64,000 nucleotides of DNA, taken from an uncultured delta proteobacterium. Its GTDB lineage: Bacteria; Desulfobacterota; Binatia; UBA9968. A program made the translations under genes and the position numbers. This document shows, in pieces, positions 37,810 through 59,363 of this stretch (within the stretch, counting starts at the first letter, position 1; every line of letters starts with the position of its first letter). The DNA lies in contig CAVXEP010000012.1 in assembly GCA_963760795.1 (NCBI GenBank), positions 64,001 to 128,000 of the forward strand. The letters run 5' to 3'. The notes under the pieces were generated by a model. It was not told the origin of the DNA and did not search any database. It saw only the letters and a program-made list of their open reading frames with translations.

Positions 37810-39048
37810 TTAGAACGTGTAAAGCAATTGCACACCGATCGTCGTCTGATTGCTTTCGGCGCTGTTTTTGCCTTTCTGGTAAACTGGGTGGTTGGCCCAA
37901 TCCTGACGCACCTCGGCGCGACCGATCAGCATCTTGGTAAACTTATAGCTGCCGGTCAAAGTCAGTTCGCCGAGTGTGACATTATGTTGGGGAGTAGTGG
38001 CCGATAAGCCGGCAGTTCGCGCAGCTTCATTATCGAAGAAAACCTCGCCACGCAGAGCCGTGGTGAAACGGTCGGTCCAGCTCCACGATGCGATAGCAGC
38101 AAGAGCGTGCCAGTAAACATTTTCCGAATTGCTCGTCGGCGTGGCCACTTCAGATTCCCTGCCGAACGTATATTCGAACAAAATTGTCAACGGATCCGTC
38201 GGTTTGATCGTCGCCACACTGCTCCAGGTCATCCTTAGGCGTCCGGTGTTATGCCTTTGTTCGGGACCAATTAGGAGATTGCTCGCCAAGCCAAAGGCAT
38301 CGCTCGGGGTCAAGTTCACGCCAACAATACCGGATGGCGCGCTGTTGTTGTCGTGCGGATTATCCCAACCGGTCACCACGCCTAAAGTGGCCGTGACCGT
38401 TTTGTGAAACGGATAGCTGAACAACGTCCCGAGATGGCGCAGCGGGACACCAAAGTTAAACGCGAAAGAACGAGAAATATTGTCGTTATACGCGCCGGGG
38501 TTGTTAAGAATTTCCGTGCCTAAGAGAGTTGTGAACAAGCCGCCTTTGATACCGATGCCCTCGCCCAAAGGAATGGTGGTTGTAAGATATGCTTCACGCA
38601 GCTCGGCCGACGGTCCGCAGCAAAACCTGGCACCGGTACTGTTCCACTGTGTGGCTTCGTGCAGCAGCTCGCCATATCGACCAAAATCACCGGAAACCCT
38701 GAAACCAACGCCCCAGTCCTTTTCCGGCTTTTCTACTGCGAGATGAAAATTACTAACATTAAACTGATTATTGTCTTTATCGAAATAGCGCCCGGAGATA
38801 TTAGACCCATTACCGGGATGATTCGAGCTCCATATGTAGCCCATATCGATAAATCCGCTGATGCCGATGCCCAAAGCATTTTCCAACCCACTTTTACCGT
38901 TGCCGATGGCGCCATCGAGCTTGCCGACACTGCTATCCAGACTCAACCAGCCTGGGCCGAGCGGCTTATCTTCGGCCGCCATAACGTTTTGCCCCCCAAG
39001 CACGATGACTCCAGCTAAGAGCGCGATTCGAACCATTCCACGTTTCAT
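37810..39048 (-). CDS. Outer-membrane beta-barrel porin (BBP2-like)
   Basis: Signal peptide, ELREAY, NDNISRS, RAEVRQD, C-terminal LYTF. Confidence 0.8.
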   Translation of the reverse strand: MKRGMVRIALLAGVIVLGGQNVMAAEDKPLGPGWLSLDSSVGKLDGAIGNGKSGLENALGIGISGFIDMGYIWSSNHPGNGSNISGRYFDKDNNQFNVSNFHLAVEKPEKDWGVGFRVSGDFGRYGELLHEATQWNSTGARFCCGPSAELREAYLTTTIPLGEGIGIKGGLFTTLLGTEILNNPGAYNDNISRSFAFNFGVPLRHLGTLFSYPFHKTVTATLGVVTGWDNPHDNNSAPSGIVGVNLTPSDAFGLASNLLIGPEQRHNTGRLRMTWSSVATIKPTDPLTILFEYTFGRESEVATPTSNSENVYWHALAAIASWSWTDRFTTALRGEVFFDNEAARTAGLSATTPQHNVTLGELTLTGSYKFTKMLIGRAEVRQDWANHPVYQKGKNSAESNQTTIGVQLLYTF

Positions 39049-39168
39049 TACCCAATCCTCCTCGAAAATCGATTTCGCTAATTTATAGCAAATTCTTCAC
39101 TAAACCCAAACGAACTAGTTCACAAAGTACAAACAAATTTCACCAGTATTTAATTGCGTAAATTCGCA

Positions 39169-39183
39169 GCAAAACGAATGCCA
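39169..39183 (-). promoter_or_regulatory. sigma54 -24/-12 promoter (porin)
   Basis: TGGCATTCGTTTTGC, GG-N10-GC spacing. Confidence 0.75.
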
Positions 39184-39302: not shown

Positions 39303-39462
39303 ATCACGGCTGCAAAAACTACAACCACGCTCTAGACAGGCCACGAAGCAACATGCAGCGGCCCACTGGCCAAGTTAGGATCGCCGATAGAGGGTCAACA
39401 GTTCAGGATCACCCGGTCCGGCGCCGACCAGATAAACCTGCCAATCCCGGTCGCGGTCATCG

Positions 39463-41624
39463 CTAATTGTCCTCCAGGGGGAAATCGCTAACCTTGCGCA
39501 CGCGCACGGCGCACGCTTTGAGCTCAGGCTGGCGCGACACCGGATCGCGCGCCGAGATCGTTAGATTGTTGGCCGCTTTGTAAAAGCCATAATCGCGACC
39601 CCAGTGAAACGGCAAGAAACAGCTGCCGCTGGCAATCTCTTCGGTGACCCGGCATTGGGCGATCACCTTGCCGCGGCGCGAGGTGACTTCGACAAAATCG
39701 GCGTCATGAATATTGTATTGGCGTGCGTCGGCGCGATTGATCTCGAGAATCGGATCAGGCGCGCTTTTGCGCAGCGCGGCATTCTTGCCGGTGCGCGTCA
39801 TAGTATGCCAATGGTACTTTGAACGTCCGGTGTTCAGCACCAACGGATAGTCGGCGTCAACCGGCTCAATCGGCCCGGCGTGCAAGACGGGAATGAAGTT
39901 GGCCCTGCCATCGCTCGACGGGAATTTCCCGTCGGCATACAACCGCGTAGAATCTCCGCGGTTATTTTTTGGACAGGGCCACTGCAACGGGCCGAGCTTT
40001 CAGCTTGCGATAATTCATGCCCGAGCAATCGCAAGCCGTATGTTTTGTCAGCGCGGCATATTCCGCGAAGATTTCCTGCGACGAGGCGTAAGTGAAATCG
40101 GCGCCGAAGCCCAACGCCGCGGCGAAACGCGCGATGATCTGCCAGTCTGGCAGGGCTTCACCGGGCGGGTCGACAAGCTTCGGCATGTAGGTGACACGGC
40201 GCTCGGAATTGGTCATGACGCCTTCTTTTTCGCTCCACTGGGCCGCCGGCAGAAGTACGTGAGCCAAGCGACTCGTGGCGGTCGGATTATACGCGTCCTG
40301 GACGATCACCAACTCGGCTTGGCGCAGCGCTTTTTCGATCACATCGAGATCTGGCGCCGACGCCGCCGGATTGGTGCACAGAATCCAGATCGCTTTCAGC
40401 TTGCCTTGGGCCAGCGCTTCGAACTGCTCCAGGGCAGGCAATCCAGCCTTAGCCGCGATAGAACCGAATGGCCGACGCCAAAATTTTTCCACTTCACTGC
40501 GCTGCGCGTCGTTCTCGACATCGCGATAGCCGGGCAACATATGCGCCAAGCCGCCGACTTCTCTGCCGCCCATGGCGTTGGGCTGTCCAGTGAGCGAGAA
40601 CGGACCGCAGCCGGGCTTACCGATCTTGCCGGTGGCCAGATGCAAATTGTGAATCGCGTTGTTCTTGTGCACACCGACACTGCTTTGGTTGACACCCATG
40701 CTCCAGAGCGAAAGCGCCTTGGCCGACTTGCCAAAGATCAGCGCCGCCTCGACGATCAGACACTCCGGGACGCCGCAGATGGCTTCGACGGCTTTCGGTG
40801 AATAGTCCCTGATGAAGTCCAAAAGCTTGGCGAAACCGTTGGTGTGCCCGGTAATAAACTCACGGTCAAGCAAATTTTCGTCAAGCAAAACATAGAGCAT
40901 GGCGTTGAGCAGCGCGATATCGGTACCTGGACGGATCGGCAAGTGCAGATCGGCGAAGTCAGCGGTCTCGGTGCGCCGCGGATCGACGCAGATGATCGTC
41001 ACTTGGTCCGGCGCGCTCAGCTTGCGCTGTTTGATACGTTTAAAAATCACCGGATGGCAATCCGCGGTGTTGGTGCCGATCAGGAAAATACAATTGGCCT
41101 CGTCGATATCGGCGTAGGAGTTGGGCGGGCCATCGGCGCCAAAAGAGCTTTTGTAACCGGCCACCGCCGAAGCCATACAAAGACGGGAATTGGTATCGAA
41201 GTTGTTGGTGCCGATGAAGCCTTTGACGAGCTTGTTAGCGATGTAATACTCTTCCGTAGTCAATTGCCCCGAGCCGTAAAAAGCCACAGCATCCGGACCA
41301 TGCTCGTCGATGATATCGCGAAATCGTTTGGCCAAATAGGTCATTGTCTGATCCCAGGACGCCCGCTTGAACGGACCGTCTTGGCAGGAACGAATCTGCG
41401 GATAGAGCAAGCGGTCCGCTGTGCGCAAGGTCTCCGGCAGGTAGACCGCTTTGAGACAGAGATCGCCGCGGCTCGACGGATGATCGCGGATCGCCTTTGA
41501 TCTTCGCCACCGTGCCGTCGCGAATTCCGGCCAAGAGCCCGCAGCCGACGCCGCAATAGGGGCAGTAACTTTTAACCCAGCGTTCGATGCCGCTACCCGG
41601 CGATTTTTTGTGGTTGCTTTCCAC
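39463..41624 (-). pseudogene. nasA: Assimilatory nitrate reductase catalytic subunit (NasA/NarB-like) with two +1 frameshifts (about 41486 and 39994)
   Basis: CPYCGVGC, NNFDTNSRLCMASA, SLTGQPNAMGGRE, TNSERR, DPVSRQPELK; removing one base at each site restores KGDPDHP and KAGPLQWPC. Confidence 0.9.
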
Positions 41625-41653
41625 GACACCCCGCTCCGCTCATTCTGTTCGGA

Positions 41654-42622
41654 TTACGACAGCGCCTTCGCGGCGGCGCGGCTTAGGCTCGTGACCGCAT
41701 CAACGATCGGCGCTTGCTTGCGGAATTTACCGCGGAAGCGATTGAAACCGGTGTATTTCTCGATTACCAACAGTTCTTCCGCCGTTACTTTTGGGTTATC
41801 GGTTTTTGCCGGTTGGTGGTCCACTCGAGATGCGAACGTACCGTTGGCATGCGCACGCTCCTCGAGAAACCCGAGCAATTGGCTGCGTATTTGATGATAG
41901 CGAGGATCTTCGCCGATACCCAGTCGATCGCGCGGCCGTTCGAATGGCACGCTGACGATCTCGCCGACCGTGGCCGCCGGCCCATTGGTCATCATGACGA
42001 TGCGATCGGCGAGCAAGATCGCTTCGTCGACGTCGTGGGTGACCATGAGAACGGTCTTATTTTCTTGCGCGCACAGCTGCATCAATTGGTCTTGCAGCTC
42101 CATGCGCGTGACCACGTCGAGCAAGCTAAACGGCTCGTCGAGCAACAGCACTTTCGGTTCCAATGCCAAGGCGCGCGCTATGCCGACGCGCTGGCGCATG
42201 CCGGCGGACAGCTCGTCGGGATAGCTGTCGGCGGCGCCATTTAGACCGACGGCGTTAAGAAACTTATCGGCGAGCTCTTTACGCGCTTTATGCGTCTGCC
42301 GATCGCTCACCTGGTCGATCGCCAGCAATATGTTTTCCCGCGCGCTCAGCCATGGCAACAGCGCCGAAGATTGAAACACCACGCCGCGGTCCAAACCGGG
42401 GCCGACCACTTCGCGCCCGGCGATGATGATGCCGCCTCGGGTGGCCTCGTTGAGCCCCATGGCGATCGATAAAACCGTCGATTTGCCGCAGCCCGAATGG
42501 CCGATGATGCAGACAAACTCGCCGTCGCTGACGCGCAAGTTAAAGTCTTTGACGATCACCGCCGGCCCCTGTGCAGTATCGTAGCTCTTGCCAAGTTGGG
42601 TGATTTCAAGTGCTGGAATCAT
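41654..42622 (-). CDS. nrtD: Nitrate ABC transporter ATP-binding subunit with C-terminal extension
   Basis: GHSGCGKS, LSAGMRQR, LLLDEPF, MMTNGPAA. Confidence 0.8.
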   Translation of the reverse strand: MIPALEITQLGKSYDTAQGPAVIVKDFNLRVSDGEFVCIIGHSGCGKSTVLSIAMGLNEATRGGIIIAGREVVGPGLDRGVVFQSSALLPWLSARENILLAIDQVSDRQTHKARKELADKFLNAVGLNGAADSYPDELSAGMRQRVGIARALALEPKVLLLDEPFSLLDVVTRMELQDQLMQLCAQENKTVLMVTHDVDEAILLADRIVMMTNGPAATVGEIVSVPFERPRDRLGIGEDPRYHQIRSQLLGFLEERAHANGTFASRVDHQPAKTDNPKVTAEELLVIEKYTGFNRFRGKFRKQAPIVDAVTSLSRAAAKALS

Positions 42623-42654
42623 GTAGTTATTTCCCCCTGTCTATCGCTGCCGGC

Positions 42655-43494
42655 CTAATGGGTAATCGCCGCCGCTGGGTCATGAGCGCTCGCCCGGCCA
42701 TGATCGGCCTTGCTCGGAGTGAGGGCTTTGAGGGTTTCGCGCCGGGCTTTTTGACAGCTGGCAAGCCCACTCAACTGCATCCGACCGCGCGGATGGGCCG
42801 CGTCTACTATGATTGCCGGTCCGAGCGTCGCTCCCGGCGCGGCGGTTAGCGTATAGATGGTGTCGGCGAGCAAAATCGCTTCGTCGATATCGTTGGTGAT
42901 CATCACCACGGTCTTGCGGGTTTCGGTCCAGATGCGCGCCAGCTCTTCTTGCAACGTGCCGCGCGTCAGCGCATCGAGCGCGCTGAACGGCTCGTCTAAG
43001 AGCAAGACTCTCGGCTCCATCGCCAAACCGCGCGCCACCGCAACGCGCTGGCGCATGCCGCCGGAAAGCTCCCGCGGCACCTTGTTCATGGCTGCGCCGA
43101 GGTTGACTAAGTTAATATAACTCTCGGTGCGCTGCCGTTTCTCCGCGGACGATAAGTGCGGCGCCACTGCGTCCACCGCCAGGTAAACGTTTTCAAACAC
43201 GCTGAGCCAAGGCAGCAAAGAATAGTTCTGAAATATCACGCCGCGATCCGGTCCCGGTCCGTCGATCGGCCTGCCTTCGAGCAGGATCGATCCTGAGTCG
43301 GCTTCGATGAGGCCGGCGATCAGCGAGATCAACGTGGTCTTGCCCGCACCTGATCGGCCGACGATGCAGACGAACTCATTTTCACGAATCGACAGGTTGA
43401 TGTCGCGCAGCACTTCAACCTTGCCGCTCTGCGACTTCCCCCGGCCATGGCGCGGAAAACTCTTGCTCACGCCTTTGAGTTCGAGGATTGCCAC
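42655..43494 (-). CDS. nrtC: Nitrate ABC transporter ATP-binding subunit
   Basis: [25 protein letters not shown]. Confidence 0.8.
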
Positions 43495-43503
43495 GTTGTC
43501 GCC

Positions 43504-44277
43504 TTAAGCCGATTTAAACCGGCGCTCGACCACGCCCATCAGCCGGTCGAGAACGAAGCCGATCAGTCCGATGGCCAGTACGGATAGAAGAATGTGCGAG
43601 TAGACCAAACTGTTATACTCCTGCCAGAGAAAGCCGCCGAGCCCTGGCGAACCGGTGAGCATCTCGGCGGCAACAATCACCAGCCAGGCCATGCCGAGAC
43701 TAAGACGATAGCCGGTGAACATGTAGGGCAGTGTCGCCGGAATCATAATCTTCGTGAGCGTCTTTATCGGCGACAGTTTAAGCACGCGGCCGACGTTTAG
43801 ATACTCCGTGGCGATGCTGCGCACGCCCATCGCCGTGTTGATCACCGTCGGCCACATGGCGCAAATTGCAATGGTAAATAAAGCCGCCGGCTCGGACTGC
43901 TTGAAGATGACCAAGCCCAGCGGCAACCAGGCCAGAGGCGAGATCGGCCGCAGCACTTGAATCACCGGGTCAAAGGCTTGATTGAACTTCGGCGACAGGC
44001 CCAAGAGAAATCCCAGCGGCGTGCCGAGGGCGATCGCCAAGAAAAATCCCTTGGCGACGCGCACCAGGCTCAAAAACGCGAAGCGCAATATCCCCTGATT
44101 CATCTCGCCGTCTTTAAAGAACGGATCGAGAATATACTGTTGGCTTTCCTGCCAAGTTTTGAGAGGCGACGGCAGGTCGGTGGCTATTTTAAGACTGATC
44201 ACCGTCCATATAAACAGCATGAGAGAGATTCCCATTAGCGGCAAAATAAACGCCGCCGCGTCGAAACGTTTTTCCAT
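43504..44277 (-). CDS. nrtB: Nitrate ABC transporter permease
   Basis: RPISPLAWLP, WPTVINTAMG, AWLVIVAAEML. Confidence 0.92.
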   Translation of the reverse strand: MEKRFDAAAFILPLMGISLMLFIWTVISLKIATDLPSPLKTWQESQQYILDPFFKDGEMNQGILRFAFLSLVRVAKGFFLAIALGTPLGFLLGLSPKFNQAFDPVIQVLRPISPLAWLPLGLVIFKQSEPAALFTIAICAMWPTVINTAMGVRSIATEYLNVGRVLKLSPIKTLTKIMIPATLPYMFTGYRLSLGMAWLVIVAAEMLTGSPGLGGFLWQEYNSLVYSHILLSVLAIGLIGFVLDRLMGVVERRFKSA

Positions 44278-44292
44278 GGCGTCTACTACCCT

Positions 44293-45562
44293 CTAAGCCA
44301 GATTGCTGACGGTAAATTTTTTCACATACTCTTCGGGCTTCGCCGGATCGAACTCGACCTTGTCGAAGAGGGTTTCTTTCTTCATGTCTTCCTTGGGTAC
44401 GGCTGACGCTCATCTCTTTGGCAACTTCGCGATAGATGTCCGGGCGCATCACCTTATTGACGATGCCGGTGTAATCCGGCGCGCCCTTGACCATGCCCCA
44501 GCGGCGGAATTGCGAGACCCACCACACGCCGTGGGACTTCCATGGGAAGTTGGTATTGCGGTCGAAGAAGGTCATGTAGTTGGGATCTTTCTCCTTGCGT
44601 CCGTCGCCGTAATCGTAGTCGCCGAGCATGCGGCCGAGAATGACTTCTTTCTGCGTGTTGATGTACTGCGGCTTCGACACCACTTCGGCCATGTGCGGGC
44701 GGTTCTCCAACTTGTCGATATACTGGCTCGACTCGGTGACCGCCCGCAGAATCGCTTTGACAGTCTTGGGATTTTTCTCGGCGAACTCTTCGGTGAAGGC
44801 CAGAACTTTTTCCGGATGATCTTTCCAAATTTGTTGCGTCGTCACCGCGGTGTAACCAATACCGTCGGCGATGGCTCGGGCGTTCCACGGCTCGCCGACG
44901 CAAAAGCCGTCCATCTTGTCGACTTTCATATTCGCCACCATCTGCGGCGGCGGTATCGTGATCAGCGTCACGTCTTTGTCGGGATTGATGCCGCCGGCGG
45001 CGAGCCAGTAGCGCGTCCACATGGCGTGGGTGCCGGGAGGAAAAGTCATCGCAAAGGTCATCGGCTTGCCGGCCTTTTTGGCTTCGTCGACAATCGGCTT
45101 CAACTGTTGCGGCGTGCGCACGCCCTTGGCCTTCAAATCGTTCTCCAAGGTGATCGCTTGGCCGTTGCGGTTGAGCACCAACGGAATGATCATCGGCTTC
45201 ACCGGCGAGCCGAGCAGCCCCATGGTCGATGAAAACGGCATGCCGAACAGCATATGCGTCGCTTGATTTTCGCCGAGCATCATCTTGTCACGGATCGCCG
45301 CCCATGAAGCTTCCTTGGAGATCGTCGACTCGATGCCGTATTTTTTGAACAGACCAAGCTCATGGGCCATCACGATCGACGAGCAATCGGTCAATGCGAT
45401 AATGCCCAAACGAATCTTGGTCGTCTCCGGCGCATCGGCGGCATAGACACCGCCAACCCAGCCGGTCGGCAGCTGGCTCAACAACATTCCCAATGAACTC
45501 GCGCCGGCCACTTTGAGAAAATCGCGCCGGCTCGGTTTTTGAACTCTCTTCATCTCGATCAC
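44293..45562 (-). CDS. nrtA: Nitrate ABC transporter binding protein (NrtA/CmpA family, Tat signal); +1 frameshift at about 44404 near the C-terminus
   Basis: SRRDFLK, IALTDC, FAMTFPPGTH, PPPQMVAN, CVGEPW, HPEK; removing one base gives ..VAVPKEDMKKETLFDKVEFDPAKPEEY..NLA* just before nrtB. Confidence 0.9.
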
Positions 45563-47412
45563 TCCTCCACTGTGTAGCTCTCGCCCTGTCGCGCGAGTTT
45601 GAAAATTTTGGCTTTGAGCTTGGCGTCGGTTGTGCAGGCGCCGGTAGTTAAGTCGAATTTGTAGCCATGCAGCGGACAGACGACGCAGCCGTCCTCGACC
45701 CAGCCGGCCGACAACTGGCCGCCTTCATGGGGGCAAGTATTTTGCATTGCGAAGAGCTTGCCTTCATGTTTGAACACGGCGATCTCTTGATTGTTGAGTC
45801 GCAGTAGTTTCGCCGCGCCCTCTTTGATCTCGTCGGCGCGAATGACCGGCTTGGCCGGTTCGGCCTTAGCTTCAGGCTTTATGCCAAGCGCCGGCGCTTG
45901 GGGGATTTTTCTCAGTTGCTGGCGCATCGCTTTGAAAGCGCCATGCTTGACCAAGCCGGCGACCGCCTCCGCCAGGTCTTCGCAGGGAACGTCTTCTAAA
46001 AGCTTAATCGGAAAATTCGCTTCGCAACCGGCCGCGCCGCCGGCGAAGACATCGACCGCTTCGACCACTTCGCCGTTGAGTTTGATATTCTTGCCGAGCA
46101 GTCCGATGTCGGCGATGGTGTGATTGCCACAGCTCGCCGGACAACCAGACCAATGCATGCGCAGCGGCTGCGTCTTACCCAATTTTGTTTCCAGCAAGCG
46201 CGCGGTCTTGAGCGCCCAGCCTTTGGTGTCGATCAAAGCGAAGTGACAGAAATCCATGCCCGTGCAGCTCACCAGACCGCGCATGACTTCGGAGGGATCG
46301 TAGCGTAGCTCCCGGAGCACAGGCTCGTCGGTAAGCGCGCCGATCTTCGCGTCGGGAACATCGGAGATAATCACGTTCTGCCCGACCGTCAGACGCAACT
46401 GGCCGCTGCCATAGTTTTCGGCCAAGTCAGCCACCTGCTGCATCTGTTCCGAAGTCATGCGCCCAACAGGCACGGCTAAACCGACATAGTTCAGCCCCGC
46501 CTGTTGCTGGCGAAACACGCCGACATGATCGGTGTGTTTCGGCGTGCGTTGATCTTTTCCCGCCGAGGCAAGCGGGCGATCGACGCGACGTTCCAATTCC
46601 ATGCGAAATTTTGCCACGCCCCATTCTTCGATCAGAAATGCCAAGCGCGCCTTGGTGCGCAGCTCGCGCGCGCCATGGTCGCGGAAGATCATGACGATAT
46701 GCGAGCAGACCGCCGCCGCTTCATCGGGTGTAACGAATAAATCCAACGGCGACGCCATGCGAAAACCGCCGGAACCGAGCTTGCCGCCGGCGGCGACGTT
46801 GAAGCCCGTCACCGGCGCGCCGTCAATTTCTTTCAACGCCGGCGTCAAAGCCAAATCCTGCGCTTCGGCGTGGGTGCAGGCTTCTTTGCAAGCAGTAATG
46901 GTTACGTTGAATTTGCGCGGCAAATCCGTGAATGCCCGGTTGCCGATAAACAAGTCGGTGAACTGGCGCGCCACTGGCGAAGCATCGAACAGCTCGTTGG
47001 GAGTCAGACCGGCAACCGGGCAGCCGATGACGCCGCGGATGTTGTCCATGCCGGTTTGCAGCGAAATCAAATCCACCGCGCGGAGCCTCTGCCAGATCTC
47101 CGGCACGTCGTTGATTCTGAATTCGCGCAACTGCATCTGCTGGCGCGTGGTGATATCGGCGAAGCCTTTGCCGAAGTCGCGGCTGATTTCACCGATGGTG
47201 CGCAGCTGCGGCGCGCTCATGAAGCCGTTGGCGAATCGCAGCCGCATCATGAAGCGGCCCGGCGTTTGACGCCGAAAGAAAATCCCGGCCCATTTTAAAC
47301 GCTCCTTGTCACCGTCGGTGATGCTTTCCCAACCTTCAGCAGCGTAGCGCGGAATGTCATCGAGAATATCTAGGCCGGCTTTCTCCTTCTTATACTCTTC
47401 AATCTTGTTCAT
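45559..47412 (-). CDS. nirA: Ferredoxin-nitrite reductase fused to a C-terminal Rieske domain
   Basis: NKIEEYK, DITTRQ, LPRKFN, CTGMDFC, SGCPASCG; C-terminal CPHEGG..CPLHG. Confidence 0.92.
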   Translation of the reverse strand: MNKIEEYKKEKAGLDILDDIPRYAAEGWESITDGDKERLKWAGIFFRRQTPGRFMMRLRFANGFMSAPQLRTIGEISRDFGKGFADITTRQQMQLREFRINDVPEIWQRLRAVDLISLQTGMDNIRGVIGCPVAGLTPNELFDASPVARQFTDLFIGNRAFTDLPRKFNVTITACKEACTHAEAQDLALTPALKEIDGAPVTGFNVAAGGKLGSGGFRMASPLDLFVTPDEAAAVCSHIVMIFRDHGARELRTKARLAFLIEEWGVAKFRMELERRVDRPLASAGKDQRTPKHTDHVGVFRQQQAGLNYVGLAVPVGRMTSEQMQQVADLAENYGSGQLRLTVGQNVIISDVPDAKIGALTDEPVLRELRYDPSEVMRGLVSCTGMDFCHFALIDTKGWALKTARLLETKLGKTQPLRMHWSGCPASCGNHTIADIGLLGKNIKLNGEVVEAVDVFAGGAAGCEANFPIKLLEDVPCEDLAEAVAGLVKHGAFKAMRQQLRKIPQAPALGIKPEAKAEPAKPVIRADEIKEGAAKLLRLNNQEIAVFKHEGKLFAMQNTCPHEGGQLSAGWVEDGCVVCPLHGYKFDLTTGACTTDAKLKAKIFKLARQGESYTVEE

Positions 47413-47431
47413 CGCTCGCGATGCTCTATAC

Positions 47432-47446
47432 GCAACGCTTATGCCG
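47432..47446 (-). promoter_or_regulatory. sigma54 promoter (nirA-nrt-nas operon)
   Basis: CGGCATAAGCGTTGC. Confidence 0.7.
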
Positions 47447-47508
47447 CCATGTGGATCGGCAAGAATAGAATGAATTCAGCAATTTCGACGCTCGGCTCGA
47501 AAGCGGCT

Positions 47509-47547
47509 TGCCCACGGTTTATTCGCGTCCCGCCCACAATTTAGGCA
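47509..47547. promoter_or_regulatory. Paired NtrC-like enhancer boxes
   Basis: TGCCCACGGTTTATTCG and CGCCCACAATTTAGGCA, 22 bp apart. Confidence 0.55.
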
Positions 47548-47676
47548 AACGCTCCCGGAGCGCCCCGTGTAATCAGCGCTTGCCAACCAAGCGCTTGATG
47601 CCAACATTCCGAGCCAGCTAGTCCATCCGTCTGGTTGACGCCGGCCTGAACGACAGATGGCCTGGCGATTGTCCGG

Positions 47677-48219
47677 TTATCTCGCCGCCGGCAACAGATC
47701 GAAAGTCAACAAACCATTTTTTGGCTCCGGACGGTCGCCGGCCGCCGGTGGATCCAACAAAACAGGACATGACAGCCGTCCGGCGATGGTGACAAGTTTT
47801 AGCGTGATTAGATCGGGAAACAGCCGCCTCCGGCGGAGTTTGAGAACTAGCAGATCGACTTCCTCATCGCGCATGAAGTTGGCTATTTCTCTGGTTAACT
47901 TGCCGAGTCTGACCACCTTCTTAACCCTGTCCTGACTCAGCGGCTCGGCCTCACGCTCGACAAAGTTCCACAGATCGAGCGCCCGCTCGCGCATCACAAG
48001 GTCCAGCGGGATGGTTGCCAAGCCGTCTAAGGGAAACCGCCAACCGTCCACCGGCACGATCGAAGACAGCAGCCTATCGCTCTCGACTTTTTCATCGATG
48101 ACATGCAACGCGATCAGCTGCGCTCCGGTTTCTCGCGCTATTGAGGCAGCATCGCGCAAGGCTTGGCCGGACTCGGGAGAAAAATCGATCGGGACTAAAA
48201 TCTTTGTTACTTTGTGCAT
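47677..48219 (-). CDS. Universal stress protein
   Basis: KILVPIDFS, LHVI, CPVL; AGGAG RBS before ATG at 48219. Confidence 0.85.
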   Translation of the reverse strand: MHKVTKILVPIDFSPESGQALRDAASIARETGAQLIALHVIDEKVESDRLLSSIVPVDGWRFPLDGLATIPLDLVMRERALDLWNFVEREAEPLSQDRVKKVVRLGKLTREIANFMRDEEVDLLVLKLRRRRLFPDLITLKLVTIAGRLSCPVLLDPPAAGDRPEPKNGLLTFDLLPAAR

Positions 48220-48275: not shown

Positions 48276-49277
48276 CTATTTTTTGTATAGGCCGTCGATA
48301 TAACCGCTGCTGTCGATCTCCTTCAGCAAACCGAGATTGACGAATGTATCGGCCCTGGAGCCTTTGGCTTTGGCGTTTCGGAGCGCCAAATCGGCGATCT
48401 GAAATTCCAGGCCCTTGAGAGTCGGATAAGGTTTCTTCTCAGTCAGTTTCTTGTAGGCCGAATAAGTTTCGTCGAGAATTTCGTTATCCTTGATCCTTAA
48501 CCGTTTGGCCAATATCTCTTTGGTTTTTTTCTCATCGGTCATCCAGACATGAATGCCGGCGATGAACGCCTTGAGAAACCGGCGTGCCGTATCCGGTCTG
48601 GTCGCAAGCATGCGCTCCGTGGTAGCCAAGGCTTCATGCTGATAATGCAAGCCGAGATCCGCCATGTCCGCGAGAATTCGATATCCCAATTTCTTGGCGG
48701 TGAGATCGAAGGGGGGCGAGATCACCGTCGCTTGCACCGTACCGCCGGTGAGCGCCGCGAAACGAGCGCCCTGATCGCCCAACTGGACTAAGGTAATGTC
48801 TTTGCCTGGAAACAAGCCATTCTGTTCAAAGGCATAACGTAACGCGAGATCTGAAGTGGTGCCGAACCGGCTGACTGCCGCCTTGGCGCCCTTCAAGTCC
48901 TCGAACCGGCGGACGGCTTTGTCGGCGACGATGCTGTAAGGCACCGTATTCATGTAGCCTGCGATGATGGTGATGTCCGAACCGGCAACCCGCGCGGCAA
49001 TGACCTCCGATCCCGAAGACACGATGAATTGCACGCCGCCGGCAAGCAGAGATTGCACTCCCTGCGTGCCGCCCTGAAAGAAAACTAAATCCACATCCAG
49101 GCCAAATTTCTCGTACAGGCCGGTGTCTTTCGGAATGAACGCATGCGCCAGCGCGCCGCTTAACCCGGCAACACCGACGTGCAGTTTTTCCAATTTTTGC
49201 TGTGCGGCACCGTCCTTAGCGAAAGCCAAGATCGCGCACACTAGCGTTGTATAAAGTATTGTTAGTTTCATCGCCAT
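48276..49277 (-). CDS. NMT1/SsuA-type ABC substrate-binding protein
   Basis: Signal peptide, GLYEKFGLDV, DLKG..VSRFGT. Confidence 0.88.
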   Translation of the reverse strand: MAMKLTILYTTLVCAILAFAKDGAAQQKLEKLHVGVAGLSGALAHAFIPKDTGLYEKFGLDVDLVFFQGGTQGVQSLLAGGVQFIVSSGSEVIAARVAGSDITIIAGYMNTVPYSIVADKAVRRFEDLKGAKAAVSRFGTTSDLALRYAFEQNGLFPGKDITLVQLGDQGARFAALTGGTVQATVISPPFDLTAKKLGYRILADMADLGLHYQHEALATTERMLATRPDTARRFLKAFIAGIHVWMTDEKKTKEILAKRLRIKDNEILDETYSAYKKLTEKKPYPTLKGLEFQIADLALRNAKAKGSRADTFVNLGLLKEIDSSGYIDGLYKK

Positions 49278-49326
49278 CCTTTCTACTGCTCATTGGTTTC
49301 GCGGCGCTCGCCCGTTATCGGCTAAT

Positions 49327-50346
49327 TCAGTTGGGCTTTATGCCTTGCGCCGCGTAGACACTGTCGATGAAACCGCTGTCTTCAAGCTTGCGCATGATGC
49401 GGCCATCGATAATGGTAGCGACCTTAAGCTCGCCGATTTTCGGCGTGCGCAGTTTCATCAGGCGCTGCGCATTGCGCAGTCCATCGACCGAGGGAAAGGG
49501 TTTCTTCTCGACGCCGCGCAACAAGTCGTCATAACCTTCCTCGGCGGAGATCTGATCGGTCTTGAGTCGGCGCATGATGGTCTTGACTGCGGCGGGGCGG
49601 TTCTTGGGCGCGAACGTAAAGGCCATGCTTTCGATCATGGCACGGAGAAAGTTCTCGGCGATCTCCGGTTTTTGTTGTAACAGCGCGCTCGACACCATTA
49701 CCGACTGATTGATCATCGGCTGCTTGAGGTCGCTGTACTCGCCGAGGATCGTCAACCCCTTCTGGCGCAGCCGGCGGCTGAAGACGCCGTCGAGCACCGT
49801 GGCATCCACGGTGCCGTTCTCCACCGCTTGGCTTTGCACGGTTTGATCGCCCACCGCCAGCAGGGTGATGTGATCACGCTGCGGGTCTAAACCAAGGTGT
49901 TCCAACCACAGCAGCGCGCCCATCCACGAGCCGCCGCCGATGCTGGTGACGCCGACTCTTTTGCCGCGCAGATCTTCAGCGCGTTTGATATTCGGCCGGG
50001 TCACGAAATCATAGGAGTTGCGGCCGGAGAAGCTGCCGATGACTTTGACATCATAGCCGCTGCTCACCGCCGCTAACGCGGCGCTGCCGCCGCCACTGCC
50101 AACGTGAATATCTCCCGAACCCAATCCGGTCACCAGCATCGTCGCACTGCGCAGAAACACCGCCTGCGGCTCCATGCCATACTTGACAAAATAGCCCTGC
50201 TCCTCGGCCAGCCAGAGCGGCGCCATACGCGAGTTCATGGCGGCATAACCGACAACGAATTTTGCCGCTGCCTGGGCGAGAGTGGCCAGCCAGCTCAGCG
50301 CCAACAGCAGCGCAACAACCGATGCGATAATCTTTGCCATTTTCAT
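49327..50346 (-). CDS. NMT1/SsuA-type ABC substrate-binding protein
   Basis: Signal peptide, GYFVKYG, DLRGKRVGVTSIG. Confidence 0.88.
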   Translation of the reverse strand: MKMAKIIASVVALLLALSWLATLAQAAAKFVVGYAAMNSRMAPLWLAEEQGYFVKYGMEPQAVFLRSATMLVTGLGSGDIHVGSGGGSAALAAVSSGYDVKVIGSFSGRNSYDFVTRPNIKRAEDLRGKRVGVTSIGGGSWMGALLWLEHLGLDPQRDHITLLAVGDQTVQSQAVENGTVDATVLDGVFSRRLRQKGLTILGEYSDLKQPMINQSVMVSSALLQQKPEIAENFLRAMIESMAFTFAPKNRPAAVKTIMRRLKTDQISAEEGYDDLLRGVEKKPFPSVDGLRNAQRLMKLRTPKIGELKVATIIDGRIMRKLEDSGFIDSVYAAQGIKPN

Positions 50347-50366
50347 ATCGAGTCCTCCGCCAAATA

Positions 50367-51407
50367 TCAGTTGCCGATCAAGAGCTTTACTTTTTCCACA
50401 ATCGCGGGCGGCGTCGCCATCACTTCTTTGGCGAGCGCCTCCAACTCTTCGCCACTGGCCGGATCCATGTCGAGACGGCGTTTCTCCGCTTCAGCCAGCA
50501 GCGCCGGATCGTTGACCGCTTTGTTAAAGGCCTCGCGCAGGATCTTGATCTTGTCCGGCGCCACACCGGGCGGCGCCACCAGTGGACGGCCAAACTCATC
50601 GGAAGCAACCACGACCTTGACCAATTGCTGTACCCCCACCGGGGTCTTGTGCTTGTCCATTAGTTCATTGAAAGTCGGCACCTCTTTCAGCCGCCCGTCG
50701 CGCTTGCTGCCGGTTTGATAGAGCACGCGCACGAAATTTTTCTTGCGCCAGGTGATAAACGGCTCGCGGGCAAAGTAAGTGGAGATTGTAAACGCCCGGC
50801 ACTGCACCTCGCCTCGTTCGACTGCCAAATCGATGTCCGAACCGGCGACGTAGCCTGAGACGATGGTGAATTTAGCGCCGATGGCGTCCTCGATGAGCTT
50901 GGGCATGTAGAATGCCGCGGAGGTGACGCCGGTGGCGCCGCACTTCGGTGGCGCAGCCGCGCCGCGCACATCTTCGATGGTCTTGATGCCGGCGTCGTTG
51001 CGGATGTACATCAACGTATTCGACGAAGCCATGCTGCCGATCCAGAGAAACCGGCTCCAGTCGAATTTGACCTCTGGCCGCTTGGCGAGCTGTTCGAAGT
51101 AAAGCGCCGGGTAGATCGCGCCGAGCGTGAGCCCGTCCGGCTTGGCGAGATTGTAGACCTGATTGGTCGCAATCAGCCCTGCGGCACCGGCGACGTTCTG
51201 AATAATAATGTTTGGATTGCCAGGTATATATTTCGGCAAGTATTCCGCCAGCAGTCGGGGATAGAGATCGTAAACATCGCCGGCTTTGGTAGCGACCACG
51301 AGCGTCACTGTCTTGCCCTGGTAAAACGGCGTCTGGGCATAGATCGCCGTACTGCTCACCAGACAACCGATAACGACGATGAGCTGTGCGCGCCTTAAGT
51401 GTGCCAT
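50367..51407 (-). CDS. TctC/Bug substrate-binding protein
   Basis: FYQGKTV, IPGNP, KPDGLT, VERGEV. Confidence 0.9.
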   Translation of the reverse strand: MAHLRRAQLIVVIGCLVSSTAIYAQTPFYQGKTVTLVVATKAGDVYDLYPRLLAEYLPKYIPGNPNIIIQNVAGAAGLIATNQVYNLAKPDGLTLGAIYPALYFEQLAKRPEVKFDWSRFLWIGSMASSNTLMYIRNDAGIKTIEDVRGAAAPPKCGATGVTSAAFYMPKLIEDAIGAKFTIVSGYVAGSDIDLAVERGEVQCRAFTISTYFAREPFITWRKKNFVRVLYQTGSKRDGRLKEVPTFNELMDKHKTPVGVQQLVKVVVASDEFGRPLVAPPGVAPDKIKILREAFNKAVNDPALLAEAEKRRLDMDPASGEELEALAKEVMATPPAIVEKVKLLIGN

Positions 51408-52552: not shown

Positions 52553-53323
52553 TTACAACACCGTCCCTGCCATTGCGTCGGAATACTCATGCGCATTCTG
52601 ATAAAAGATATCGACCTTCTCGTTGTTCTTTGTTTCCAGCAACAGTTGCGCGTTGGCGACCGCGCGATCAATGTCTTCGATCGGCGTCGCCGAAACTCGC
52701 CCATGACCGGGGTAGAGCGCCTTCAGAGTGAAACTGCGCAGCCGCGCCAGCGAGTCGAGGTAGTCGCCGATACTACCGCTCTCAGCGATGTAGGAGAGCG
52801 TGCCGCCGGCGAAAACGCTGTCCGCCGAAAACAGTAAACCGCAGCTGGATTCGATGATCGAAATGCAGCCGGAAGTGTGGCCCGGCGTGTGAAAGACGCG
52901 CAGCGTATAGTTGCCCAAATCGATGCGCGTCATATTTTCCAGCCACAGATGCACCCGCATCGGCGGTTCGTTGAGGTCGTTGCCCTTGTACATGGTCACG
53001 TAGTAGTCGCCGGTGGTCATCTTCGACGCGGCTAAACGATAGGCTGCGATCATCGCGGTTTCCTGAAAATAACGATTGGCGCCAATATGATCGCAATGCT
53101 CGTGCGAGTTGATGACCAGGTTGACGTCGCGCACCTTCATGCCGATATGGCGCAAGCCGCGCTCCAGCACCGGAAAGTTTTGATCCGAACCGGTGTCAAT
53201 CATAACGTTCATGTAATCGCCCTTGATCACGTAACTATGACTGCTGCCCTTGCGGCCGCGAATCTGAAAAATCCCCGGGTTCAGTTCGTTCACCGCGTCA
53301 TAGATCTGCGCCATTGCTTTCAA
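52553..53323 (-). CDS. MBL-fold metallo-hydrolase
   Basis: IDTG, SHEHCDH, HTPGHT, PGHG. Confidence 0.92.
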   Translation of the reverse strand: MKAMAQIYDAVNELNPGIFQIRGRKGSSHSYVIKGDYMNVMIDTGSDQNFPVLERGLRHIGMKVRDVNLVINSHEHCDHIGANRYFQETAMIAAYRLAASKMTTGDYYVTMYKGNDLNEPPMRVHLWLENMTRIDLGNYTLRVFHTPGHTSGCISIIESSCGLLFSADSVFAGGTLSYIAESGSIGDYLDSLARLRSFTLKALYPGHGRVSATPIEDIDRAVANAQLLLETKNNEKVDIFYQNAHEYSDAMAGTVL

Positions 53324-53673
53324 TGCCTTCCTGCCATCATGGCTGCTTCGAGATCATCGAAGATTTCAAACCGTTCGGCGAAACGATCGTCGTGAAAATA
53401 TCCCTTCAGTTCCGGATTGAGATGGCACAGCCTTAGCACCCCGACACGTTGATCGACTTCGCGTTTGAACGATATCAGCACGCCCACTTCCCACACGCCG
53501 AACTGCTCGAGTTGCTTTAGGTTGACGATGACTCGAATTCCCTGGCGCGTGAGCCAGCGTCGAAACAAATATCGCACCCGCAGCGGTTCATTGTTTTCAG
53601 CTTTTCCCGACGGCGTCACGATCACCCAACCAGAAACTTCGGTAAGGCGATATTGCACCGGTGTTAATTCCAT
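53320..53673 (-). CDS. STAS/anti-sigma-antagonist-like protein, 117 aa
   Basis: VIVTPSG, RVIVNLKQL, GVLRLCHLNP, FEIFDDLEAA; ATG at 53673 preferred over the ORF-track start. Confidence 0.75.
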   Translation of the reverse strand: MELTPVQYRLTEVSGWVIVTPSGKAENNEPLRVRYLFRRWLTRQGIRVIVNLKQLEQFGVWEVGVLISFKREVDQRVGVLRLCHLNPELKGYFHDDRFAERFEIFDDLEAAMMAGRH

Positions 53674-53858
53674 AGCGGCCAGTCTTTCCGCCGGCGCCGG
53701 CTGGCGCGAACGATGTAGGCCGGCGCAAGCTCGAAACAGCGCGCCATCTCCAGCACCGGCAATGGCGGGATATCTTTGTCCGCCAGGTCGCCAAAGACAT
53801 CGGCGAGAAAAATAATGTTGTCGAAGATCTTCTCGGTTGCCGACTTCTTCGTGTTCAT
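53664..53858 (-). CDS. Small hypothetical protein, 64 aa
   Basis: GGAGG RBS right after the leader terminator; overlaps the STAS start by 10 nt. Confidence 0.65.
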   Translation of the reverse strand: MNTKKSATEKIFDNIIFLADVFGDLADKDIPPLPVLEMARCFELAPAYIVRASRRRRKDWPLWN

Positions 53859-53871
53859 TTTCTTGCCCTCC

Positions 53872-53936
53872 AAAAAAAAGGCGCTCCACCGGATCACCGG
53901 TGAGCGCCATTGCTCAACCCAGGGCAACATCGCCCT
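53872..53936 (-). promoter_or_regulatory. ANTAR-target dual-hairpin leader with intrinsic terminator
   Basis: P1 AGGGC-GAUGUU-GCCCU, P2 UGAGC-AAUGGC-GCUCA, terminator GGCGCUCACCGG-UGAU-CCGGUGGAGCGCC-U8 overlapping P2. Confidence 0.88.
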
Positions 53937-53951
53937 CGCTTACTTAACAAC

Positions 53952-53966
53952 GCAACGGCTGTGCCA
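53952..53966 (-). promoter_or_regulatory. sigma54 promoter (cassette)
   Basis: TGGCACAGCCGTTGC, exact consensus. Confidence 0.85.
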
Positions 53967-54027
53967 CTTGCCAGCAAGCGGAAAGGATAGCGATATCATG
54001 ACGTTTTAATATTCTGTTAATATTGAC

Positions 54028-54066
54028 CGCCTGTTCAATAGACACGAGCTGCCTAAACTACCAGCA
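54028..54066. promoter_or_regulatory. Paired NtrC-like enhancer boxes
   Basis: CGCCTGTTCAATAGACA and TGCCTAAACTACCAGCA, 22 bp apart. Confidence 0.5.
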
Positions 54067-54190
54067 ACCGGTAGCCATGAAGCTGCAAAAGATATTTCAC
54101 CACGGAGGAACAACCACCGGAGATCGGTCAAGATTAGACAGCGGGCTAAAACATTACGTTTTCGCGATGAATTCCGATAGGTTCTAGATC

Positions 54191-54778
54191 TTAAGGATTG
54201 CTCTCGGTGAGCAGTCCGCCGGCAAGTAAGATCGCCTGGGCGATGTCCGACATCGGCTTGCGCATGTTCATGCTGGCCTTTTTCATCAGTGAATAGGCAC
54301 GTTCTTCAGACAGATGGCGCTGCTCCATCAACAAGCCTTTGGCACGCTCAATTAACTTCCGTTCTTCGAGATTTAACTTGAGCGTGGAAACTTCTTCACG
54401 CAGGGAGGTAAATTCATGAAAGCGGCTGACGGCGAGCTCGATCGCCGGCGCGAGCTCCTCGACGCGCAGGGGTTTGACCAGATAACTCATCACGCCGGCA
54501 TTAGTCGCGCGCGCCACGGTCGAAGGATCGGCATGACTTGTAATCAGCACGATCGGCAGCGGACTGGTCTTCATGATCTCGTGCGCTGCTTCAATACCAT
54601 CGAGATCCGCCAACCCGACGGCCATAACGAGAACTTCAGCGCCGGAAGCCTGCGATAGCGCCAACGCGACCTTCCCACTCGCCCCCTCGGCAGCGATTAG
54701 ATAACCGCTGCAACGCAAACTTTCGACCAGTTGGCGGCGCGATGGGTCGTGATCGTCGATAACCAGGACCTTCTTCAT
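54191..54778 (-). CDS. ANTAR-domain regulator with pseudo-receiver (Asp53->Ala)
   Basis: Receiver fold N-terminus with VLVMAVG; [28 protein letters not shown]. Confidence 0.93.
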
Positions 54779-55521
54779 AGTGAAATCATCCCGCCGTCCG
54801 CTTTGCGGCTTTTCGAGCGAGCGATGCGCCGGAGAAACTCGGAGAGGAATCGCTCGCCGTAGTACTTGAGCGCCGGCGCATGGTTTTGCGTATCGGCCAT
54901 GATCTTGTCCGGCTGGACGTAGGGGGACAGCGCCAGGTCTTTGGAGCGCTCATCGAGCCAGCGTTCGATCATGCGCGGAGTCACCTCGAGATGAAATTGC
55001 AAGCCGTAAATAGTCTTGCCAAGGCGAAATGCCTGGGTGCGATAGTGCTGCGACGACGCCAGCAAAATCGCCCCAGCTGGCAGCTCGAAGCCGTCGCCAT
55101 GCCACTGGAACACCGTCGCATTCTCCGGCAGATAGCCGAGTAAGGAATCGACTTGGCCATGGGGTGTGATCGAAATCGGACTCCAGCCGATCTCTTTAAC
55201 CGCACCGTGAAACACCGCAGCGCCGAGCGTCGTGGCAATCAACTGCGCGCCCAAACAAATTCCAAGAACCGGCACCGCTTCATCGATGGCGGCGCGAATG
55301 ATGCGCTTTTCCCAGCGTAGAATCGGAAAGCCGGTTTCGTCGTCGACGTTCATCGGCCCGCCGAGAATGATCAGCGCTTTGACCTGTTCCCAGTTCTCCT
55401 CAGGCATTTCACCGTGGAATAAGCGGACCACACGATAGGCGGCGTGCTGTTTTTCAAGAACTTCGGCGAAGAATCCCAAATCTTCGAATGGGTCATGCTG
55501 AAAGACAACGACCTCACTCAT
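54775..55521 (-). CDS. Class I glutamine amidotransferase (GuaA-N-like), 248 aa
   Basis: LGGPMNV, GICLGAQ, FQWHGD, LQFHLE; own ATG at 55521. Confidence 0.9.
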
Positions 55522-55550
55522 GGGTCCCCCAAAAGTTAGTCCATCAAAAG

Positions 55551-55590
55551 CACAGTGGACTGAGCGGATTTCGTCCCTCAGTCCACTGTG
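55551..55590 (-). terminator. Stem-loop after glnA
   Basis: CACAGTGGACTGAG/CTCAGTCCACTGTG 14-bp stem followed by CUUUU. Confidence 0.75.
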
Positions 55591-55601
55591 CCCAACTATT
55601 T

Positions 55602-57018
55602 TTAGATATCGAAATAGAGAGCGAACTCCCAAGGATGGGGTCTTAAGCCGGATGGCGTCGACCTCATGCTTTCTCTTGTACTCCAACCAGGTCTCGATAA
55701 CATCCTTGGTGAAGACATCGCCCTTGAGGAGGAAATCATGATCCTTCTCCAAGGCATCGAGCGCCTGGTCAAGCGACCCTGGCATCGACTTCACCTTGGC
55801 GGCCTCTTCGGGTTCTAATTCGTACAAGTTCTTGTCGATCGGTTTGGGCGGCTCGGTCTTGTTTCTAATCCCGTCCAACCCCGCCATCAGCATCGCCGGA
55901 AAGGCGAGATACGGATTGGCGCTCGGGTCAGGGGTGCGAAACTCCAGCCGCTTGGCCTTCTCACTGGTCGAGTACATGGGAATCCGCACACAGGCGCTGC
56001 GGTTTCGCGCCGAGTAGACTAAATTGATCGGCGCTTCGTAGCCGGGAACCAGTCTGCGGTAGGAGTTGGTCGTCGGCGCGATGAAGGCGCACAGCGCGTG
56101 GGCGTGCTTGAGCAGGCCGCCGATGTAATGTCGGGCGGTCTCGCTGATCAGCCCGTAGCCCTTCTTGTCGTAGAAAATATTCTTCCCAGACTTCCACAAG
56201 CTCTGGTGGCAGTGCATGCCGGAACCGTTGTCCTGAAACAGCGGCTTGGGCATACAGGTGACCACTTTGCCGCGCTGGCGGGCGGTATTCTTAACCACAT
56301 ACTTGTACAGCAGCACCTTGTCGGCCATCTTGGTCATGGTGTCAAAGCGCATATCGATCTCGGTCTGGCCGCCGGTGGCGACTTCGTGGTGATGGACTTC
56401 GATCTTGATGCCGCATTTCTCTAAGTTGAGCACCATCTGGGAGCGCAGGTCTTGATACTGATCCATCGGCGGCACCGGGAAGTAACCTTCTTTGTAACGA
56501 ATCTTGTTGCCCAGATTGGGGCCGTCGCCGTTGCCCGAGTTCCAGAACCCTTCGCTGGAGTCGATGTGATAGTAGCCTTCGTGGTGGTTCTGGTCGAAGC
56601 GGATGCTGTCGAAGATAAAAAACTCGATCTCGGGACCCCAGTAGCTGATGTCGGCCAAGCCGGTGGACTTTAAATACTTCTCGGCTTTCTGAGTGATATA
56701 GCGGGGATCGCGGGAATAGGGCTGGCGGGTGATCGCATCCAACACGTTACAGACAAAGCTCACGGTGGGGTGTTCGGAGAACGGATCCATCATGGCGGTG
56801 TCGGGATCGGGCAACAGGATCATGTCCGATTCGTTGATGCTCTGAAAACCGCGGATGCTTGAGCCGTCAAAGCCCAACCCTTGTTCGAACTTGTCGGCGT
56901 CGAAATCTGTTGCGGGGATCGAAAAATGCTGCCACAGCCCGGGCACGTCGATAAACTTGAAATCGACGATCTCTACTTTGTTCTTCTTCGCCATCTCTAG
57001 GACGTCTTTTACGGACAT
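55602..57018 (-). CDS. glnA: Glutamine synthetase type I (+1 insertion at about 55643 near the C-terminus)
   Basis: [25 protein letters not shown] adenylylation site; removing one base restores [15 protein letters not shown]. Confidence 0.96.

Positions 57019-58804: not shown

Positions 58805-59363
<559 letters not shown>

Follow-up and report, generated by a model that had tools for sequence, protein, structure and literature searches.

A predicted ANTAR-type RNA switch behind a sigma54 promoter in the nitrate-assimilation cluster of an uncultured Binatia-type soil bacterium

A short leader on the minus strand of the 64,000-nt stretch of contig analysed here (hereafter, the window) very probably places a nitrate/nitrite-assimilation operon under two-step control, in which transcription would be initiated by sigma54 and then gated by an ANTAR antiterminator of the NasT type. 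The leader represents a well-known kind of RNA switch, clearly recognisable but ordinary, in an uncultured soil lineage. An initial annotation, made from the letters of the window, had read it as a sigma54 promoter leading straight into an ANTAR switch, with the ANTAR gene that serves it just upstream. Comparative sequence data support that reading: P1 and the terminator covary, the genome's single ANTAR gene keeps the Tyr and Met that contact RNA in its relatives, rpoN is present and an enhancer-like dyad lies upstream of the promoter.

Results

All elements of the leader lie on the minus strand, in the order sigma54 element, P1, linker, P2, terminator and U8 tract. The -24/-12 element (TGGCACAGCCGTTGC, 53966..53952) matches TGGCAC-N5-TTGC exactly, and 15 nt past it begins the P1 hairpin (53936..53921), AGGGC/GAUGUU/GCCCU, with a 5-bp stem and a hexaloop. 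A 4-nt linker, GGGU (53920..53917), leads to P2 (53916..53901), the putative anti-terminator hairpin UGAGC/AAUGGC/GCUCA, also with a 5-bp stem and a hexaloop; folding and conservation delineate both hairpins, which together occupy 53936..53901 and have the stem lengths, loop sequences and linker length given in the initial annotation. The same two lines of evidence place an intrinsic terminator, GGCGCUCACCGG-UGAU-CCGGU(G)GAGCGCC, at 53908..53880, with UGAU as its loop and a U8 tract behind it (53879..53872). The 12 pairs and the U8 proposed for it stand, but the stem is not a plain one: its 3' arm carries a single bulged G, and because of this bulge a simple terminator scan overlooked it. The 5' arm of the terminator consists of the last three loop bases and the entire 3' arm of P2 (eight shared bases, 53901..53908), so P2 and the terminator cannot coexist. 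The mutual exclusivity claimed for them is borne out by this overlap, with predicted energies of -6.3 kcal/mol for P2 versus -23.7 kcal/mol for the terminator.

ANTAR-target RNAs are defined by Ramesh et al. (2012, PMC3369931) as two neighbouring hairpins of at least 3 bp each, with six-base loops and a short variable linker, and the dual hexaloop with G at loop position 4 (G4) is given there as the ANTAR signature. The leader matches this definition, with 5-bp stems, hexaloops, a 4-nt linker, G4 in both loops (GAUGUU and AAUGGC) and a P2 that overlaps an intrinsic terminator, except for G instead of A at position 1 of the P1 loop. Both loops do have the purine at position 1 and the G at position 4 that had been reported for them (G1/G4 in P1, A1/G4 in P2). 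The label 'canonical' goes slightly too far, since position 1 of the P1 loop departs from the consensus A. In the EutV-RNA structure, A1 is described as making no specific contact and is thought to block cross-loop pairing (PMC8934654), and NasT binding is described as needing loop A1/G4 (PMC10783516). The minimum free energy (MFE) fold of our leader closes the GAUGUU loop of P1 by a cross-loop pair, leaving a tetraloop; position 6 is U or C in 10 of the 11 leaders with G1 in P1, where a cross-loop pair could likewise shrink the hexaloop to a tetraloop.

The 88-nt leader has an MFE of -40.9 kcal/mol (z = -4.23), and 0 of 200 shuffles folded as well. Before the 3' arm of the terminator emerges, the nascent RNA is predicted to consist of P1 and a P2-containing hairpin. 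The behaviour modelled in this way, default termination with a transient P2, is a requirement of an ANTAR switch.

A script scan of the 6.58-Mb genome for dual hairpins with stems of at least 5 bp, [AG]NNGNN hexaloops and a linker of at most 8 nt returned 283, of which 18 had a T5 run within 80 nt. Among those 18, this leader was the only one in which, by eye, a terminator stem directly overlaps P2. A relaxed scan of the genome (stems of at least 3 bp plus a terminator) gave 92 mostly implausible matches, with no second convincing ANTAR target found among them. The sole match of model R1 in its own genome was the leader itself, a result to be read with the model's tuning to the sequence of the leader family, which would make it miss divergent targets. 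Across a sample of 151 genomes of the class, with 31 candidates scored per genome, at least six genomes had R1 matches at E <= 1e-3. Reading by eye the gap before nirA (47412..47677) and the leader of the porin gene (39049..39183), we saw no hairpin with an A/G-x-x-G hexaloop in either.

In a search for known RNA families with Rfam, the P11 model (RF00625) aligns to 53978..53880, from promoter to terminator, but with 27.3 bits (E 7.3e-4) against a gathering threshold of 70; run against the whole genome, with 150 of 228 candidates scored, RF00625 did not return the leader. The leader resembles NalA, the NasT-bound leader to which P11 corresponds (PMC11387622), in architecture, but is outside Rfam family RF00625, and its score, far below the family threshold, gives no evidence of common descent with P11/NalA.

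Orthologous leaders were collected by two routes. A BLASTN search with the 151-nt region against 60 relatives recovered 16 clear ones; matches L020-L022, which had neither promoter nor hairpins and look like chance matches in GC-rich, probably coding, sequence, were dropped before alignment. A protein-based scan with the 64-aa ORF that follows the leader yielded 25 loci, mostly from soil MAGs named Candidatus Binatia or 'uncultured delta proteobacterium', and in 23 of the 25 the promoter, P1, P2, terminator and ORF occur in the same order. This count includes one degenerate leader (L055; no P1, 5-nt P2 loop) that was excluded from the alignment, and two loci (L065 and L066) have the ORF without an ANTAR leader.

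The resulting alignment, A3, holds 23 distinct leaders, drawn from relatives that are close kin (one family for most), and counts over it are not independent. In A3, 93.1% of P1 and terminator cells are paired, a share that drops to 37-50% once the partners are slid; in six pairs both bases change, and the covariation score was reached by 0 of 500 shuffles. Across the 23 leaders, 4/6 P1 pairs change on both sides, and 97.4% of terminator cells are paired, with one pair switching between U-A (13 leaders) and C-G (8). Four P2 pairs are invariant in 23/23 and the fifth is U-A in 15/23; because those four never vary, covariation neither supports nor contradicts P2. The loops are constrained as well: G4 is present in 23/23 leaders in P1 and in 23/23 in P2, position 1 is always A in P2, and position 1 of P1 is a purine throughout, A in 12 and G, as in the window, in 11. 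A T-rich run follows the terminator stem in all 23.

The promoter is kept as well, with TGGCA and TTGC in 23/23 leaders and a 6-nt spacer in one of them (G029). The window contains two exact copies of TGGCAC-N5-TTGC versus 0.18 expected, a number reached by 1 of 100 shuffles; both are on the minus strand, one before glnK and the other being the leader promoter. The exact match, its conservation and rpoN, of which the genome has one copy, support the consensus sigma54 promoter named in the initial annotation. From the usual -12 spacing, we infer a start at about 53940, which would put P1 at about +5 and make the terminated RNA 68 nt long. Upstream lies an enhancer-like dyad, TGC-N11-GCA (TGCTGGTAGTTTAGGCA, 54066..54050, minus strand), centred at about -118 from the predicted start. 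In 21 of the 23 orthologous regions upstream of the promoter its centre falls between -117 and -120; in shuffled controls the mean was 0.25 of 23 and the highest value 3. We take the TGC-N11-GCA spacing to be of the NtrC type, and the dyad is probably the site for a sigma54 activator; about 26 matches in the genome cover the central activator region of the ntrC model. A weaker candidate activator site, TGT-N11-GCG (54044..54028, minus strand), lies 22 bp downstream of the first in partly conserved alignment columns and reads TGA-N11-GCA in many relatives.

The other exact sigma54 element (59227..59213, minus strand) lies 70 nt upstream of glnK (59143..58805), and glnK-amtB-glnA-nasT is therefore a probable sigma54 operon, an arrangement that would place nasT itself under sigma54 control. 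Two looser matches were noted elsewhere on the minus strand. A near-sigma54 element, CGGCATAAGCGTTGC, at 47449..47435, which lies in the 264-bp gap between the Usp gene and nirA, about 20 nt ahead of the nirA start codon, may be a separate nirA promoter in the window genome. A sigma54-like TGGCATTCGTTTTGC lies at 39183..39169, about 120 nt upstream of an OmpL-like porin gene (39048..37810), whose leader is AT-rich and has no ANTAR-type hexaloop.

The presumed antiterminator is encoded by a REC-ANTAR gene (54778..54191, minus strand; PF03861, 3.2e-20; PF00072, 1.2e-19), the only PF03861 match in the genome (88.9% complete). Its stop codon, at 54193..54191, is 225 bp before the promoter, at the distance that had been estimated. 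The best relatives of solved structure are Rv1626 (1s8n, E 1.2e-38) and EutV (6wsh, 2.5e-31); NasR (structure 4akk) matches over residues 114-187 of the regulator only. In EutV, a Tyr stacks on G4 and a Met forms a plug, both in contact with the RNA (PMC8934654). Tyr162 and Met170 of the window protein align with these two residues; of 22 homologues, 17 have Tyr and 5 have Phe at position 162, and all 22 keep Met170.

Where receiver domains carry the phospho-acceptor Asp, this one has Ala53 (of the 22 homologues, 21 have Ala and one has Ser), and a histidine kinase therefore cannot drive the protein at the usual site. By analogy with AmiR-AmiC and NasS-NasT, as those systems are described (PMC8934654, PMC3795266), the Asp-less receiver points to control by a partner protein or ligand. 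The REC-ANTAR (NasT) half of a NasS-NasT pair is present, but a NasS gene was not found beside nasT, whose neighbours are glnA and the leader in 9/9 relatives' loci. Nor was a second strong NrtA-type protein found in the 88.9%-complete genome, where the TAT-signal NrtA of the transporter scores 324 bits and the next match 84.5. A complex prediction for the STAS protein, the 64-aa protein and NasT, aimed at binding of NasT by the first gene products, gave scores of 0.17 and 0.06 against a mark of 0.32, which speak neither for nor against such binding.

Gene order on the minus strand is glnK-amtB-glnA-nasT, leader, 64-aa ORF, STAS, MBL, nirA-Rieske, nrtA, nrtB, two ATPases, nasA and porin. The 64-aa ORF (ATG at 53858, stop at 53664) starts 14 nt past U8, behind a Shine-Dalgarno sequence, GGAGGG (53871..53866), and both ORF and Shine-Dalgarno sequence recur in 17/17 relatives' leaders, the protein having 18 invariant columns. 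One of its Cys residues is invariant, and near the C-terminus it has a basic motif, ...W-x-L-W. Neither Pfam nor NCBIfam gave a match to the protein, and the ESM Atlas gave matches at noise level only (0.76); its predicted structure is three helices at low confidence (pLDDT 63.9). The protein is widespread, with 658 database clusters (90% identity, E <= 1e-3), of which the 120 listed are all unnamed or 'hypothetical protein'. The STAS-domain gene (53673..53320; PF01740, E 5.5e-6), whose ATG overlaps the end of the 64-aa ORF, and the metallo-beta-lactamase-fold (MBL) gene (53323..52553; PF00753, 1.6e-27, with a weaker ODP-family match, PF19583, 1.3e-7) are each found in 6/9 relatives' 20-kb loci.

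The nitrate-assimilation genes themselves (47412..39962, minus strand, assigned by Pfam) run from nirA-Rieske (47412..45559) through nrtA, nrtB and two ABC ATPase genes to the molybdopterin nitrate-reductase gene nasA (41629..39962). Synteny from glnK-amtB-glnA-nasT through the leader and 64-aa ORF to nirA-nrt-nasA is kept in 8/8 long relatives' loci, and the ninth ends at a contig end after nirA. In three genomes (G011, G017 and G018) nirA directly follows the 64-aa ORF, without STAS and MBL, and in G025 the operon genes are tightly packed. In the window genome, nirA lies about 6.4 kb away from the leader, behind an unknown gene, TctC, two NMT1 genes and Usp, with intergenic gaps of 177, 122 and 264 bp before nirA, the last of them after Usp. 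With these other genes and gaps in between, the switch may control nirA in this genome, as the relatives suggest.

Some features of the cluster stand apart from the switch. The two PF13379 genes and the TctC gene inserted in it (48276..51407) occur in a genome with at least 142 NMT1_2 (PF13379) matches at E <= 1e-10, a very large expansion. At the 3' end of the cluster, the reading frame for nitrate reductase ends at 39962, and a 174-aa ORF (39987..39463) carries on in a different frame, followed by a short ORF from 39460 that, judged by its motif, resembles the start of a uroporphyrinogen methyltransferase. The region 39400..41629 (minus strand) thus suggests a frameshift, or decay at the cluster's 3' end.

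RNA-library contigs at a depth of 2-4 cover 53908..54394 (X16 record 12), 53681..53828 (X16 record 11) and 53537..53880 (X18 record 26), and none of the pieces listed spans the terminator stem at 53881..53907; since such contigs cannot show transcript ends and may include DNA, they were not used as evidence of termination or expression.

Discussion

The anatomy of the leader suggests a two-step circuit. When nitrogen is limiting, binding of an NtrC-like activator to the dyad near -118 would allow sigma54-RNA polymerase to start at about 53940. The second step, whose anatomy is laid out in the leader and whose function we infer from it, would begin with the folding of P1 and P2 in the nascent 68-nt leader. 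If no protein is bound, the far stronger terminator would displace P2 and transcription would stop at U8. The REC-ANTAR dimer, encoded just upstream, is expected to sit on both hexaloops, with G4 read by the Tyr162/Met170 surface, and by holding P2 it would let the polymerase read on into the 64-aa ORF and the genes for STAS and MBL; in relatives, readthrough would lead directly to nirA, nrtABCD and nasA. Since nasT lies in the glnK-amtB-glnA-nasT cluster behind the second sigma54 element, the circuit is probably a feed-forward gate that would require both promoter firing and accumulated, active NasT.

Sigma54/NtrC initiation combined with ANTAR antitermination is described as standard control of nas operons (PMC10783516, PMC11387622, PMC12591593). 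A close parallel is NalA/P11 of the nirBD genes with NasS-NasT in P. aeruginosa and P. putida, where, as described, an RpoN/NtrC-dependent promoter is likewise followed at once by a short leader, with two hexaloop hairpins for the REC-ANTAR protein NasT and an overlapping rho-independent terminator, ahead of nitrite/nitrate-assimilation genes (PMC10783516, PMC11387622, PMC4253122). Unlike that system, the one in the window has no NasS beside nasT, nasT follows glnA, P1 has G1, and the first genes are the 64-aa ORF, STAS and MBL rather than nirB. The nasF-NasR system of Klebsiella oxytoca is reported to share the logic of an NtrC enhancer and sigma54 promoter for nitrogen limitation, followed by ANTAR antitermination in the leader (PMC12591593, PMC3369931). 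NasR, however, is a NIT-ANTAR protein that senses nitrate itself, whereas the regulator here is a REC-ANTAR protein without a nitrate sensor domain.

The defining ANTAR mechanism is that described for the eut leaders of Enterococcus faecalis, where an EutV dimer binds two hexaloops and P2 excludes the terminator (PMC8934654, PMC3369931); the G4-stacking Tyr and the Met plug are kept in the window protein. EutV, in contrast, belongs to a different pathway and is activated by phosphorylation of Asp54, where the protein here has Ala. In AmiR-AmiC of P. aeruginosa and NasS-NasT of Paracoccus, the receiver-like domain is described as governed by a protein partner and not by phosphorylation (PMC8934654, PMC3795266), and the Asp-less receiver here suggests a regulator of the same kind, although a partner gene such as those systems have was not found. 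The departures from known systems are G1 in P1, no NasS found, an Asp-less receiver, nasT in a probably sigma54-driven glnK-amtB-glnA operon and an uncharacterised first gene, all but the first being modestly unusual.

These departures invite a more speculative reading, which we regard as unlikely: NasT here might work without NasS, its Asp-less receiver run by a partner or ligand, with the first operon products (the 64-aa protein by itself or together with the STAS and MBL/ODP-like proteins) forming a sensing or feedback module that sets NasT activity. Possible inputs to such a module are nitrite, NO and redox state. With nasT and the leader both under sigma54, the whole would be a circuit with feed-forward as well as feedback, a combination not described for nas operons.

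Three other explanations of the leader deserve weighing against an ANTAR switch. The predicted default product in the absence of protein is a short terminated RNA, and the counterpart in Pseudomonas was at first listed as an sRNA, P11 (RF00625; PMC11387622), as would suit a stand-alone sRNA, a sigma54-dependent transcript of about 68 nt that ends at U8 and has a trans function of its own, readthrough being incidental. Yet the conserved 64-aa ORF and its Shine-Dalgarno sequence follow only 14 nt past U8, the distance is short in 17/17 leaders and no other promoter is evident between them, while the overlap of P2 with the terminator and the invariant ANTAR-type loops suit a switch and not a trans-acting RNA; we give the sRNA explanation very little weight. 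The two roles do not, moreover, exclude each other. It is just as improbable that the hairpin and U8 merely terminate the glnK-amtB-glnA-nasT transcript, with the ANTAR likeness due to chance and the downstream genes reached by leaky readthrough or through another factor. Here the conserved sigma54 promoter and dyad, which separate nasT from the terminator in 21-23 of 23 leaders, are telling, since transcripts from that promoter must be able to pass the terminator, and the invariance of G4 in both loops and the covariation of P1 also speak against a chance likeness. What such a terminator would explain is its own position, 283 nt after the nasT stop, and the extent of the X16 record 12 contig, which runs from inside nasT to 53908 (as a contig it cannot show a transcript, and DNA may be present). 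One terminator could serve both roles.

There is, finally, a slim chance that the switch is real but is run by an agent other than the neighbouring REC-ANTAR protein, either a small-molecule-binding RNA fold or another RNA-binding protein, as the deviation of P1 from the A1 consensus and the lack of an identified sensor in the regulator might suggest. For a known riboswitch, however, the leader lacks the size and complexity, and the Rfam search gave no riboswitch match at E <= 10. The dual hexaloop with G4 is, as described, the signature of ANTAR targets (PMC3369931), and the ANTAR gene is adjacent to the leader in 9/9 relatives' loci and the only one in the genome. The evidence at hand thus continues to favor an ANTAR switch served by the nasT gene upstream.

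If so, a logic of nitrate assimilation that combines sigma54 with ANTAR, and whose documented cases have so far come from Proteobacteria, would extend to Candidatus Binatia-type soil bacteria; a limited literature search, whose results never mention Binatia, found no regulatory work on this group. The compact 68-nt RNA, with 23 natural variants that include an A1/G1 polymorphism in P1, offers material for studies of ANTAR recognition. Practical leads are the control of NasT without NasS or a phospho-acceptor, and the role of the widespread 64-aa product.

Two further observations concern the neighbourhood of nasT and the wider occurrence of such leaders. The ORF upstream of nasT (54775..57018, minus strand) reads as a fusion, with residues 1-460 corresponding to type I glutamine synthetase and residues 500-735 to class-I glutamine amidotransferase. 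In relatives, the best alignment of the glnA ORF spans the synthetase part only in 7/9 loci and the whole length in G011, and in G029 no alignment row lay above the length filter; the two parts may be truly fused, or a frameshift or an assembly join may lie where glnA ends. In G096, which belongs to another genus, locus L073 carries two leader-like elements about 330 nt apart (1159..1238 and 1501..1571, both on the minus strand), each with a hexaloop hairpin and a terminator, and the second scores 32.3 bits with model R1.
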